Positions 1-64,000 of a stretch of 64,000 bases of DNA are shown here, in pieces. The notes beneath the pieces are model-generated. The model saw nothing but the letters and a program-made list of their open reading frames with translations. It had not been told where the DNA came from and searched no databases. The stretch's first letter is position 1; each line of letters begins with the position of its first letter. This stretch comes from Escherichia coli. GTDB taxonomy: Bacteria > Pseudomonadota > Gammaproteobacteria > Enterobacterales > Enterobacteriaceae. Where the stretch lies: assembly GCF_030013595.1 (NCBI RefSeq), contig NZ_CP122768.1; one strand, given 5' to 3'. The translations under genes were made by a program, and so were the position numbers.

Positions 1-1062
<1,062 letters not shown>

Positions 1063-1066
1063 ACCT

Positions 1067-1366
1067 ATGGCGCTTACAAAAGCTGAAATGTCAGAATATC
1101 TGTTTGATAAGCTTGGGCTTAGCAAGCGGGATGCCAAAGAACTGGTTGAACTGTTTTTCGAAGAGATCCGTCGCGCTCTGGAAAACGGCGAACAGGTGAA
1201 ACTCTCTGGTTTTGGTAACTTCGATCTGCGTGATAAGAATCAACGCCCGGGACGTAACCCGAAAACGGGCGAGGATATTCCCATTACAGCACGGCGCGTG
1301 GTGACCTTCAGACCCGGGCAGAAGTTAAAAAGCCGGGTCGAAAACGCTTCGCCCAAAGACGAGTAA
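1067..1366 (+). CDS. ihfA: integration host factor alpha subunit
   Basis: 99-aa ORF with HU/IHF-family sequence (GFGNF...RNPKTGE); 4 bp after pheT stop. Confidence 0.95.
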
Positions 1367-1383
1367 TCTGATCTAACTAAAAA

Positions 1384-3061: not shown

Positions 3062-3810
3062 TGTCTATTGTGATGCAGCTACAGGATGTTGCGGAATCAA
3101 CCCGCCTTGGGCCGCTTTCTGGCGAGGTTCGGGCAGGGGAGATCCTGCATCTGGTGGGGCCGAATGGCGCGGGTAAGAGTACCTTACTGGCGCGAATGGC
3201 CGGAATGACCAGCGGTAAGGGAAGCATTCAGTTCGCGGGGCAACCACTGGAAGCATGGTCCGCAACAAAACTCGCACTGCATCGCGCCTATTTTTCACAA
3301 CAGCAGACGCCGCCGTTTGCAATGCCGGTCTGGCACTACCTGACACTGCATCAGCACGATAAAACGCGTACCGAACTACTGAATGATGTCGCAGGGGCGC
3401 TGGCTCTTGATGACAAACTCGGACGTAGCACCAATCAACTTTCCGGCGGCGAATGGCAACGCGTACGTCTTGCTGCGGTGGTGCTGCAAATCACACCACA
3501 AGCCAATCCCGCAGGCCAATTACTACTTCTTGATGAGCCCATGAACAGTCTTGATGTTGCGCAACAAAGTGCATTAGACAAAATTCTGAGCGCGCTGTGT
3601 CAGCAAGGACTGGCGATTGTGATGAGCAGTCACGATCTCAACCATACATTGCGTCATGCGCATCGGGCGTGGTTGCTAAAAGGTGGAAAAATGCTGGCCA
3701 GTGGACGCAGGGAAGAGGTGCTCACGCCGCCAAATCTGGCGCAGGCCTATGGGATGAATTTTCGCCGTCTGGATATCGAAGGTCACCGAATGCTGATTTC
3801 GACCATCTGA
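3061..3810 (+). CDS. btuD: vitamin B12 ABC transporter ATP-binding protein
   Basis: 249-aa ORF with Walker [10 protein letters not shown] and ABC signature LSGGEWQR; start overlaps btuE stop by 1 nt. Confidence 0.9.
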
Positions 3811-4598: not shown

Positions 4599-5312
4599 AT
4601 GAAGATTTTTTTGGAGAATCTTTATCATTCTGATTGCTATTTCCTGCCGATAAGAGATAACCAGCAAGACCTTGTCGGCGTTGAGTTAATTACCCATTTC
4701 TCCAGTGAAGATGGTACGGTTCGTATTCCGACGAGTCGGGTTATAGCGCAACTTACCGAGGAGCAACATTGGCAATTATTTTCAGAGCAGTTGGAATTAC
4801 TAAAATCATGCCAACACTTTTTTATTCAACATAAACTCTTTGCCTGGCTTAATTTAACCCCACAAGTGGCTACATTATTATTAGACAGGGATAATTACGC
4901 AGGCGAACTATTAAAATATCCGTTTATTGAACTGTTGATTAATGAGAATTACCCGCATCTCGATGAAGGAAAAGATAATCGCGATCTTTTGTCCTTATCG
5001 CAAATGTATCCCCTTGTTTTAGGTAATTTGGGCGCAGGCAATAGCACAATGAAAGCGGTTTTTGATGGTCTTTTCACCCGCGTCATGCTGGATAAAAGTT
5101 TTATTCAGCAACAAATCACGCATCGCTCCTTCGAACCGTTTATTCGTGCGATCCAGGCGCAAATTTCCCCATGTTGCAATTGCATCATCGTGGGGGGCAT
5201 TGATACGCCAGAAATAATGGCACAGATTACCCCCTTTGATTTCCATGCTCTCCAGGGATGCCTATGGCCTGCCGTTCCTGTAAATCAGATAACGACGTTG
5301 GTTCAGCGATAA
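4599..5312 (+). CDS. ydiV: degenerate EAL-like protein, anti-FlhD4C2 factor
   Basis: 237-aa ORF recognised as YdiV; conserved K-12 position. Confidence 0.85.
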   Translation: MKIFLENLYHSDCYFLPIRDNQQDLVGVELITHFSSEDGTVRIPTSRVIAQLTEEQHWQLFSEQLELLKSCQHFFIQHKLFAWLNLTPQVATLLLDRDNYAGELLKYPFIELLINENYPHLDEGKDNRDLLSLSQMYPLVLGNLGAGNSTMKAVFDGLFTRVMLDKSFIQQQITHRSFEPFIRAIQAQISPCCNCIIVGGIDTPEIMAQITPFDFHALQGCLWPAVPVNQITTLVQR

Positions 5313-21032: not shown

Positions 21033-21111
21033 TGTTAATTCCTGATACAGGTGTGATTTTCCCTACGCCAGATGGAGAATTAGCGCACAGAGACTCACGA
21101 AATATTATTGC

Positions 21112-42081: not shown

Positions 42082-44832
<2,751 letters not shown>

Positions 44833-50446: not shown

Positions 50447-51703
50447 ATGGGATCTGATGCGAAAAACTTGATGAGCGACGGGAACGTGCAAATTGTTAAG
50501 ACCGGCGAGGTCATTGGCGCGACGCAACTTACTGAAGGTGAGTTAATTGTTGAAGCTGGCGGAAGAGCCGAAAATACCGTGGTCACGGGGGCTGGCTGGT
50601 TGAAAGTGGCAACCGGTGGGATCGCCAAATGCACACAGTACGGCAACAATGGCACGCTATCGGTCAGCGACGGTGCCATTGCCACAGATATTGTTCAGTC
50701 CGAGGGAGGCGTAATTAGTCTCTCTACGCTCGCTACGGTTAATGGCCGCCATCCCGAAGGTGAATTCAGCGTTGATAAAGGTTATGCCTGCGGTTTGTTG
50801 CTGGAAAATGGCGGTAACCTGCGTGTACTGGAAGGCCATCGCGCGGAAAAAATTATTCTCGATCAAGAGGGTGGCCTGTTGGTCAATGGGACAACCTCAG
50901 CGGTCGTGGTAGATGAAGGTGGTGAATTGTTGGTGTATCCCGGTGGGGAAGCCAGCAATTGTGAGATTAATCAGGGCGGCGTTTTTATGCTGGCGGGGAA
51001 AGCCAGTGATACATTGCTTGCTGGTGGCACCATGAATAATCTCGGTGGTGAAGACTCTGACACTATTGTTGAGAATGGATCCACTTATCGTCTGGGGACG
51101 GATGGTCTTCAGCTCTACAGTTCCGGTAAGACGCAAAACCTGTCCGTTAATGTGGGTGGTCGGGCTGAAGTGCATGCCGGTACGCTGGAAAATGCGGTAA
51201 TACAAGGTGGGACAGTCATCCTGTTGTCACCCACCAGCGCGGACGAAAATTTTGTCGTAGAGGAAGATCGCGCACCGGTTGAACTGACCGGTAGTGTTGC
51301 ATTACTGGACGGCGCTTCAATGATTATTGGCTATGGCGCAGATCTGCAACAATCAACGATTACTGTACAGCAGGGCGGTGTATTGATTCTCGACGGCAGT
51401 ACGGTAAAAGGTGACAGTGTCACTTTCAATGTTGGTAACATCAATCTGAATGGCGGAAAACTGTGGCTAATCACTGGTGCGGCAACGCATGTGCAACTGA
51501 AAGTGAAACGCCTGCGTGGAGAGGGAGCCATTTGCCTGCAAACCAGTGCGAAAGAAATTTCACCTGACTTCATCAATGTGAAAGGGGAAGTTACCGGGGA
51601 TATACACGTTGAGATAACAGATGCCAGTCGGCAAACTCTGTGTAACGCACTGAAACTACAGCCAGACGAAGACGGGATTGGCGCAACGCTCCAGCCTGCG
51701 TAA
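50447..51703 (+). CDS. ydhQ: autotransporter-passenger-like repeat protein
   Basis: 418-aa Gly-rich ORF with repeated GG-containing beta-helix-like units; no obvious signal peptide or beta-barrel domain. Confidence 0.8.
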   Translation: MGSDAKNLMSDGNVQIVKTGEVIGATQLTEGELIVEAGGRAENTVVTGAGWLKVATGGIAKCTQYGNNGTLSVSDGAIATDIVQSEGGVISLSTLATVNGRHPEGEFSVDKGYACGLLLENGGNLRVLEGHRAEKIILDQEGGLLVNGTTSAVVVDEGGELLVYPGGEASNCEINQGGVFMLAGKASDTLLAGGTMNNLGGEDSDTIVENGSTYRLGTDGLQLYSSGKTQNLSVNVGGRAEVHAGTLENAVIQGGTVILLSPTSADENFVVEEDRAPVELTGSVALLDGASMIIGYGADLQQSTITVQQGGVLILDGSTVKGDSVTFNVGNINLNGGKLWLITGAATHVQLKVKRLRGEGAICLQTSAKEISPDFINVKGEVTGDIHVEITDASRQTLCNALKLQPDEDGIGATLQPA

Positions 51704-62469: not shown

Positions 62470-62817
62470 ATGAGCACCACTATCGAAAAAATCCAACGCC
62501 AGATTGCTGAAAACCCGATCCTGCTGTACATGAAAGGTTCACCGAAACTGCCGAGCTGCGGTTTCTCTGCCCAGGCAGTCCAGGCGCTTGCCGCATGTGG
62601 CGAACGTTTTGCCTATGTTGATATTCTGCAGAATCCGGACATTCGTGCGGAACTGCCGAAATATGCTAACTGGCCGACCTTCCCGCAACTGTGGGTTGAC
62701 GGCGAGCTGGTCGGCGGTTGTGATATCGTGATCGAAATGTATCAGCGTGGAGAACTGCAGCAGCTGATCAAAGAAACTGCCGCTAAATACAAGTCTGAAG
62801 AGCCGGACGCGGAATAA
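62470..62817 (+). CDS. grxD: monothiol glutaredoxin 4
   Basis: 115-aa ORF with CGFS active site. Confidence 0.95.
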   Translation: MSTTIEKIQRQIAENPILLYMKGSPKLPSCGFSAQAVQALAACGERFAYVDILQNPDIRAELPKYANWPTFPQLWVDGELVGGCDIVIEMYQRGELQQLIKETAAKYKSEEPDAE

Positions 62818-62867: not shown

Positions 62868-64000
62868 CTATCCCCAATCCAGCCCTTGTGGCGAACTTGA
62901 AAATCCCGCCTCACGCAGCAGCGTAAACATCGGCGTTTGCCGGACCGGTAGATCATTCACTTCTGTTAGCGTAAAGTGCAGCCGTGGTTCGCGACGCAGT
63001 GCGGTAGTCAGCGCGTGGAAAACCTCTGGGGCGAGTAATTCCTCTTTTTCCTGCCAGACCAGCATTTTTTTGCCACCTTGCGCCAGATAGAGTAACAATT
63101 TTCCGCCAGAAACGACCACCAGCGCACCCGCCCGACGCGTTGGAATCAGCGTTGCCGGATGTGCAGGCCAGGGCAGAAGATTTCCCCACACATTAGCCGG
63201 ATCGTTGGCAGAGAGCGCCACTGGTGTATAGTGGCGCGTTTGCGTGGCTTGTGTCGCCAGATCGCGCAATCGGTCAATAGTCAGACGTTCAGCGAATTGC
63301 GCGCCACCCAGACCTTCTACAAAACGACCTCGCATAATTCGCCCGGAGTCTTCCATACTTCGACAAAGCGTTTGCATCGATGGAAAACCGCCAGGGATAT
63401 TTTCGGCTATCACCGCCTGACGACTGATGATGCCGTAGCGGTCGAGCATATTTTCCGCCAGCGCCAGCATCCTTTCGGTATCGTTTAGTGGCTCCACCTG
63501 CAATAACGACCAGCGTCCGGCCAGCTTTGGTGTGTTGTAAGATACCCGCGGCGAGACGGGGTGTGCATAGACAGGACGCCCACGACGAGCCCGGTGACTG
63601 CGGCGAGTTGAGGTGCGCGCGTTGGAACTGCTGCGGGTGAGGGCGCGTAACGGTGCCCAAATATCGCTGGTGATGACGCCTTGCCAGACCAGCGCCCATA
63701 ACGCCTCTTGCAGTGCCGAGGGATCAACCGATTCGCCGATTTTATCGCGTATCCGTTGGCTGATTTGTTGTGCAAACCAGGCTCCTCCGTCAGCCAGAAC
63801 CGTGACTATCGCTTGCTGCAGTGCCGAACGATTCGCCTGATTCGCTTCGGCGGGAGTGAACGATTCTGCAGCATATTCCTGTAGATGCAGTGCCACCAGG
63901 CCGTCATCTTCACCCAGTTTTTTTGCCCCGACCAGATAACCGCACCGGTTGCCAGTAATTCATCGAGCATTTCTGGCGAATAGTCGCGTACGCGGGCAGG
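62868..64000 (-). CDS. lhr: Lhr large helicase-related protein, C-terminal region (partial), with an apparent frame change at a T7 run
   Basis: Minus-strand ORF 62868-63896 recognised as Lhr C-terminus; in-frame stop at 63960-63962 while another frame stays open to the window edge; frames meet at ttttttt 63918-63924. Confidence 0.75.

Follow-up and report, generated by a model that had tools for sequence, protein, structure and literature searches.

Escherichia coli Lhr is a DNA-repair helicase (superfamily 2, with a glycosylase C-terminal region) encoded by an intact gene of 1538 codons. The helicase core comprises residues 1–897, and Asp1536 is essential for the C-terminal uracil-DNA glycosylase activity, which is independent of unwinding (PMC10953399). 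The gene is dispensable and its loss is tolerated in nature: knock-outs display mild phenotypes (PMC10953399; PMC3045373), ST131 strain 4993 retains between rnt and grxD only stubs of lhr, ~100 and 126 nt long, and a sensitive search detected no 3′ end of lhr in 1043 of the 5426 complete E. coli genomes (∼19%). Dcm-motif errors and homopolymer-length errors are the two main classes of Nanopore consensus error in Enterobacteriaceae (Wick et al. 2019, PMC6591954). −1 frameshift sites are known from dnaX and IS elements; A_AAA_AAC is a recognised −1 shifty heptamer, although E. coli shifts on it far less than on A_AAA_AAG (PMC5009743), and −1 shifting at C-AAA-AAA in E. coli reportedly amounted to 25–60% in one over-expression vector (PMC1851650).

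The stretch of DNA analysed here (the window, 64 kb) runs along the E. coli chromosome from ihfA/btuC to the 3′ quarter of lhr, in which a run of eight A residues (A8) in the coding strand of reference genes is written as seven (A7). The identical change, in the same 81-mer and with the same frame consequence, occurs in RefSeq genomes whose lhr is annotated as “frameshifted” (ETEC4077 and others), but those entries lie on other haplotypes, 0 to 120 SNPs from K-12 as compared to ∼107 for the window lineage; because the haplotypes differ, the event in the window is independent of theirs. As in Nanopore consensus errors, a one-base under-call in an A run is found together with a private substitution in a CCAGG motif. 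In contrast to the Nanopore error profile, the window is affected at no more than one of its 28 runs and one of its 152 Dcm sites, and the other homopolymer change that it contains is real. The locus shares with ST131 strain 4993 a tolerance of the loss of Lhr function, yet unlike the stubs of that strain it is short of one base at most, the coding sequence being otherwise pristine. Finally, as at the dnaX and IS-element sites, A_AAA_AAC is present in the incoming frame and a −1 shift regains the native frame, but the window has neither a conserved two-frame arrangement nor a stimulatory structure, and its heptamer exists solely through the deletion. The A7 form of lhr is a consensus error or else a routine slip that turned a dispensable gene into a pseudogene, and does not depart from known kinds of event.

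The window corresponds to 37–38 min of the K-12 map in reverse orientation, and its gene order and identity agree with K-12, the pig isolate HCP5S3_I2 and others, HCP5S3_I2 being the best match among RefSeq complete genomes (99.93%). The gene interrupted at its end is lhr, as had been read from the sequence alone, and this assignment holds by both position and domain content. It lies on the minus strand with its stop codon at 62868–62870 and exits the window at 64000, ∼3.5 kb of it falling beyond the window end. The 342-aa open reading frame (ORF) at this end adjoins grxD (62470–62817), and in relatives, as in K-12, the order is rnt-lhr-grxD. The same ORF is matched by WH4_Lhr (PF23234; E = 1e-28). 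On K-12 Lhr, Pfam places WH3_Lhr at residues 1130–1206 and WH4_Lhr at 1334–1416, so that the break, at codon 1189, falls within WH3. The DEAD/Helicase_C core is coded past the window end and is present in the lhr of the nearest sibling.

Each element of the frame break described in the original prediction was recovered in the sequence (Table 1): the T7 run at 63918–63924, a downstream ORF at 62868–63896 on the minus strand (342 aa, GTG start), the stop at 63960–63962 that closes this frame on its 5′ side, and a second frame open from the window edge. The second frame passes through A7, reading ...LLATGAVIWSGQKNWVKMTA / ...ATGAVIWSGQKNWVKMTA..., and ends at the TAG at 63806–63808. Restoring one A yields the joined reading ...LLATGAVIWSGQKKLGEDDGLVALH... 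/ ...WSGQKKLGEDDGLVALH..., which had been judged a natural sequence and is in fact identical to residues 1171–1200 of the intact Lhr of the closest relative. At the tract, reference lhr differs from the window in one respect, A8 as against A7, so that the single added base proposed to restore one frame is the base that references carry; A8 was read in CFSAN061763, HCP5S3_I2, GCA_020301305.1, GCA_049544575.1 and K-12, and the change is placed at nt 3560 of the gene. The single ORF of ∼1538 codons, Asp1536 included, is accordingly broken in the window at codon 1189 and intact in all close relatives, and the comparison with reference lhr that had been proposed as a check returned A8 and one intact 1538-codon gene in these relatives. 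The predicted product of the A7 gene has 1188 native residues followed by 37 aberrant ones (1225 aa) and is devoid of the WH4 domain and of Asp1536. Reading the locus as a split gene that restarts at the GTG at 63896 was rejected, since no convincing ribosome-binding site precedes this codon and 90 nt of the restarted ORF are overlapped by the upstream frame.

Table 1. Positions of the lhr frame break and of other informative sites in the window
Feature	Coordinates	Strand	Remarks
A7 tract (T7 on the plus strand)	63918..63924	-	lhr codons 1187–1189; site of the frame break; A8 in relatives
lhr native frame 5′ of the break, to Gln1187	63925..64000	-	Runs past the window end
Out-of-frame read-through	63806..63919	-	37 aberrant codons NWVKMTAWWHCIYRNMLQNRSLPPKRIRRIVRHCSKR, then TAG (63806–63808)
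lhr codons 1190–1538 and stop, original frame, now severed	62868..63917	-	End of WH3, WH4_Lhr, Asp1536
TGA closing the downstream frame on the 5′ side	63960..63962	-	Ordinary off-frame triplet of native lhr
Substitution giving Lhr Q1308H	63561..63561	-	Common to two other assemblies with full-length lhr
Private synonymous A-to-C, ydhQ codon 165	50941..50941	+	Dcm site CCAGG changed to CCCGG
G7 in ydhV	43013..43019	+	G6 in relatives; inherited lineage marker, real as judged from independent contigs

As such, a T7 run is unremarkable in the window, which contains 25 runs of seven bases and three of eight, all three of the latter intergenic. The location of the break is nonetheless not random: it falls exactly on a run, and the A8 of the reference is the longest homopolymer in lhr. 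Comparison with HCP5S3_I2 revealed 41 substitutions and two one-base indels, both in homopolymers, namely G7 versus G6 at 43013 in ydhV and T7 versus T8 at 63918 in lhr. A second homopolymer frame break in the window, as originally reported, is therefore present (G7 at 43013–43019 versus G6). When the substitutions were polarised with ETEC4077 and K-12, about half were assigned to each branch, with a GC-to-AT bias and a nonsynonymous-to-synonymous ratio near 1:1, a pattern that looks like natural divergence and unlike that of a mismatch-repair mutator. A mutator lineage was rejected as an explanation, the lineage SNPs being about half transversions and nine nonsynonymous to nine synonymous. 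Relaxed selection following pseudogenisation, considered on account of nonsynonymous changes in ydhY, ydhV and lhr, was likewise rejected, since relatives with intact genes share these changes.

A much closer relative than HCP5S3_I2, GCA_020301305.1, was found through exact-protein look-ups of lineage-specific alleles; this nearest sibling matches ∼61 kb of the window. Five substitutions are derived in the window relative to it (3276, 6267, 35188, 50941 and 63561) and one is derived in the sibling (41253); the remaining differences are the two homopolymer indels and a 65-nt intergenic deletion in the window. Both ydhV (700 aa) and lhr (1538 aa) are intact in the sibling. The rare Q1308H change caused by the substitution at 63561 recurs in two other assemblies with full-length lhr, so that this SNP is real. 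Of these two, GCA_049544575.1 was read: across 4.1 kb, A8 and a single substitution of its own are all that set it apart from the window, which places A7 on the terminal branch of the window record. Exact look-ups in the protein collection returned neither the 342-aa C-terminal ORF nor the modelled 1225-aa product, and A7 on the lhr haplotype of the window was found in no complete genome. By these comparisons A7 is private to the window record.

This privacy bears directly on whether the missing base reflects a miscall or a mutation, the two options put forward originally and still the live ones. We favour the former for lhr: A7 is probably a base-calling or consensus miscall in the source assembly, the real state most likely being A8. 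The source assembly would then under-count the longest homopolymer of lhr by one base, a shortfall of the kind made by long-read consensus methods; the frameshift would be only apparent, and the lhr of the strain would be an ordinary intact 1538-codon gene. Consistent with this, the nearest sibling has an intact lhr, the Q1308H assembly GCA_049544575.1 has A8, and the direction of the change, a long A run called too short, is in keeping with long-read consensus errors. As is typical of a long-read error, the change affects the length of a homopolymer and nothing else, and independent assemblies of the closest relatives do not show it. One of the four private substitutions that are unverified, that at 50941, moreover destroys a Dcm site. 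The base 50941C occurs in 0 of 5425 complete genomes, the flanking 81-mer being otherwise nearly invariant, and may be a methylation-linked consensus error. Dcm motifs make up 1.2% of the window and were hit by none of the 15 lineage SNPs that the sibling assembly also has and by two of 18 SNPs private to HCP5S3_I2; within the Dcm site, the altered base is not the deamination position. The Dcm argument concerns one substitution only, which tempers its weight in favour of a miscall. Also against a miscall, the 26 other runs of seven or more bases, including the three intergenic 8-base runs, agree with close relatives.

In the alternative, A7 would be a genuine strain-private replication slippage in which one A was lost from A8, leaving lhr a young pseudogene or the source of a truncated protein. 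We consider this possible, if doubtful. The longest homopolymer in lhr is an expected slippage hotspot, and the dispensability of the gene, apparent from the ST131 stubs, from its frequent absence and from the mild knock-outs, makes such a loss tolerable, a point that also counts against a miscall. The branch leading to the window also carries plausible real mutations, a selO A298V allele that an exact look-up in the protein collection found on no other record and the 65-nt deletion, so that there has been time for a genuine slip. The deletion is itself a slippage-type event: the 65 nt are missing between ydiF and aroD (window 21098–21106) and are present in the closest sibling, HCP5S3_I2, ETEC4077 and K-12. 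The missing segment is bounded by a 9-nt direct repeat, CGAAATATT, and contains a GC-rich hairpin, and the best complete-genome matches all need two pieces across the site; the loss resembles a deletion between direct repeats and seems private to the window. Mutation-accumulation work on wild-type E. coli puts spontaneous indels and substitutions at a ratio of roughly 1 to 10. On the private branch this ratio is ∼2 to 4, well above the spontaneous one, which argues against genuine slippage. It also counts against slippage that neither of the two closest relatives has A7, nor any protein-collection record searched. We therefore tend to read the shortfall as error rather than mutation. Should A7 be real, it would be one more tolerated loss of Lhr function, in which the helicase core (1–897) and part of the C-terminal region are kept and WH4 and Asp1536 are lost; the uracil-DNA glycosylase activity would disappear, because WH4 and Asp1536 are removed, and the helicase would be spared.

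The same tract is broken elsewhere. Of 4351 complete genomes in which this part of lhr is present, 18 (0.4%) contain the A7 81-mer as an exact match, and in all six of these 18 that were examined (ETEC4077, 730V1, ETEC1734, ETEC1749, ETEC1706 and STEC388) lhr is annotated as “frameshifted” by PGAP. These six represent four clearly different lhr haplotypes, or at least five when that of the window is included; A7 therefore arose, or was called, repeatedly. Sporadic occurrence of the same A8-to-A7 call on at least five unrelated haplotypes favours a miscall. Four of the 18, Belgian pig ETEC assemblies whose accession numbers lie close together, seem to stem from a single study. Two assemblies, ASM3001367v1 and ASM3001343v1, have entries of “Oxford Nanopore GridION” only in a published table (PMC13109261), and by NCBI numbering these correspond to ETEC1734 and ETEC1749; ETEC4077 and ETEC1706 were presumably produced on the same Nanopore-only platform. 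Enrichment of the call in a set of which at least two members are listed as Nanopore-only again points to a miscall and away from slippage. Over 34 kb, ETEC4077 differs from its clone-mate EC556 by three SNPs, with A7 as the sole indel. On the other hand, A7 is found in pairs on one haplotype (730V1 with STEC388; ETEC1734 with ETEC1706), for which inheritance of a genuine slip is possible. Some A7 genomes have further damage, or further errors, in lhr: ETEC1706 has a second one-base homopolymer deletion (C5 to C4, nt 1290), and the STEC388 gene is annotated “frameshifted; internal stop”.

Recurrence on several haplotypes might also suggest that the A tract is a phase-variable (contingency) switch that frequently toggles the Lhr C-terminal region. 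We find this barely credible: the “off” state occurs in just 18 of 4351 genomes, the tract is shorter than would be expected of a contingency locus and sits three quarters into lhr, and clone-mates are almost all A8, as are the closest relatives, so that frequent variation is not what is seen. A metagenome scan for A7 and A8 gave one match, A7 in a gut contig of 2.1x coverage with more indels, and hence no usable frequency. C-terminal fragments of 200 and 211 aa, which begin at other start codons, are on record, but their sources proved to be metagenome scaffolds with N gaps or unrelated haplotypes in which lhr is broken at another place; with gaps or other break sites as their cause, they are uninformative on the window lineage. 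A literature search returned nothing specific on lhr frameshifts. In practical terms, the A8 tract of lhr is a trap that recurs, the same call being present in 18 “complete” RefSeq genomes, and the window record as written would lead pipelines to call lhr a pseudogene or two genes, a matter of annotation hygiene.

A real A7 allele might also be leaky, with a −1 ribosomal slip or RNA polymerase slippage restoring some full-length Lhr and two forms being made, which we regard as very unlikely. The incoming frame, CAA-AAA-AAC, does contain the A_AAA_AAC slippery heptamer, at which a −1 slip would regain the native frame. However, the two-frame arrangement is not conserved, relatives having A8 and a single ORF, and A7 is scattered over haplotypes in just 0.4% of genomes. 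No stimulatory structure was found downstream, the 80 nt after the site having a minimum free energy (MFE) of −20.2 kcal/mol as compared to a shuffle mean of −21.4 (z = +0.38), and no suitably spaced upstream element was evident by eye. The question is in any case moot if A7 is a miscall. Of the features of a programmed −1 frameshift, the locus thus has the heptamer and lacks conservation and a stimulatory structure; programmed recoding is unsupported, and a real A7 allele would be at most slightly leaky. It is more improbable still that real A7 would yield mostly helicase-only Lhr with a trace of the helicase-glycosylase, recurrent A8/A7 change acting as a reversible dial on the glycosylase half.

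The second frame break has a different history. In ydhV, which encodes an aldehyde ferredoxin oxidoreductase, G7, where most E. coli have G6, splits the gene into ORFs at 42729–43106 and 43003–44832. The exact 609-aa downstream product of the split gene is on record in 12 contigs, all fragmentary and short-read-like in appearance, among them GCA_008326365.1, the Logan assembly of ERR14334243 and GCA_021649405.1, the last without a difference from the window over 7.8 kb. Three of the 12, from independent samples, were read, and all three have G7. With the split product recorded unaltered in at least 12 independent contigs, ydhV G7 is a genuine inherited mutation that makes the gene a pseudogene and marks a sub-lineage. 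The same change has arisen independently in ST2747, an unrelated complete genome, in which ydhV is annotated as “frameshifted”. The suggestion that two homopolymer breaks in one window point to a systematic artefact consequently does not stand. The two breaks do not reinforce one another: that in ydhV is inherited and real, and that in lhr is private and probably spurious. As they differ in history, counting homopolymer breaks is not evidence of a systematic artefact, and each break needs its own comparison with independent assemblies of close relatives. For lhr, the ydhV result weighs on the side of mutation in two respects. G7 looked equally suspicious and yet turned out to be real, so that the record is not generally unreliable at runs, and the lineage has evidently already fixed one homopolymer frameshift.

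Further differences among the close relatives were observed elsewhere in the window. In HCP5S3_I2, ISKpn26 (IS5-like) is inserted between ydiM and ydiL (opposite window ∼25500), and a small phage-integrase island lies between ihfA and btuC (opposite window 1–1383); the window has neither and is K-12-like at both sites. In GCA_030347985.1 (∼5101; opposite window 4606–4612), the opening codons of ydiV, the gene for an anti-FlhDC factor, contain T6 rather than T7, and ydiV is called there from a later start (233 versus 237 aa).
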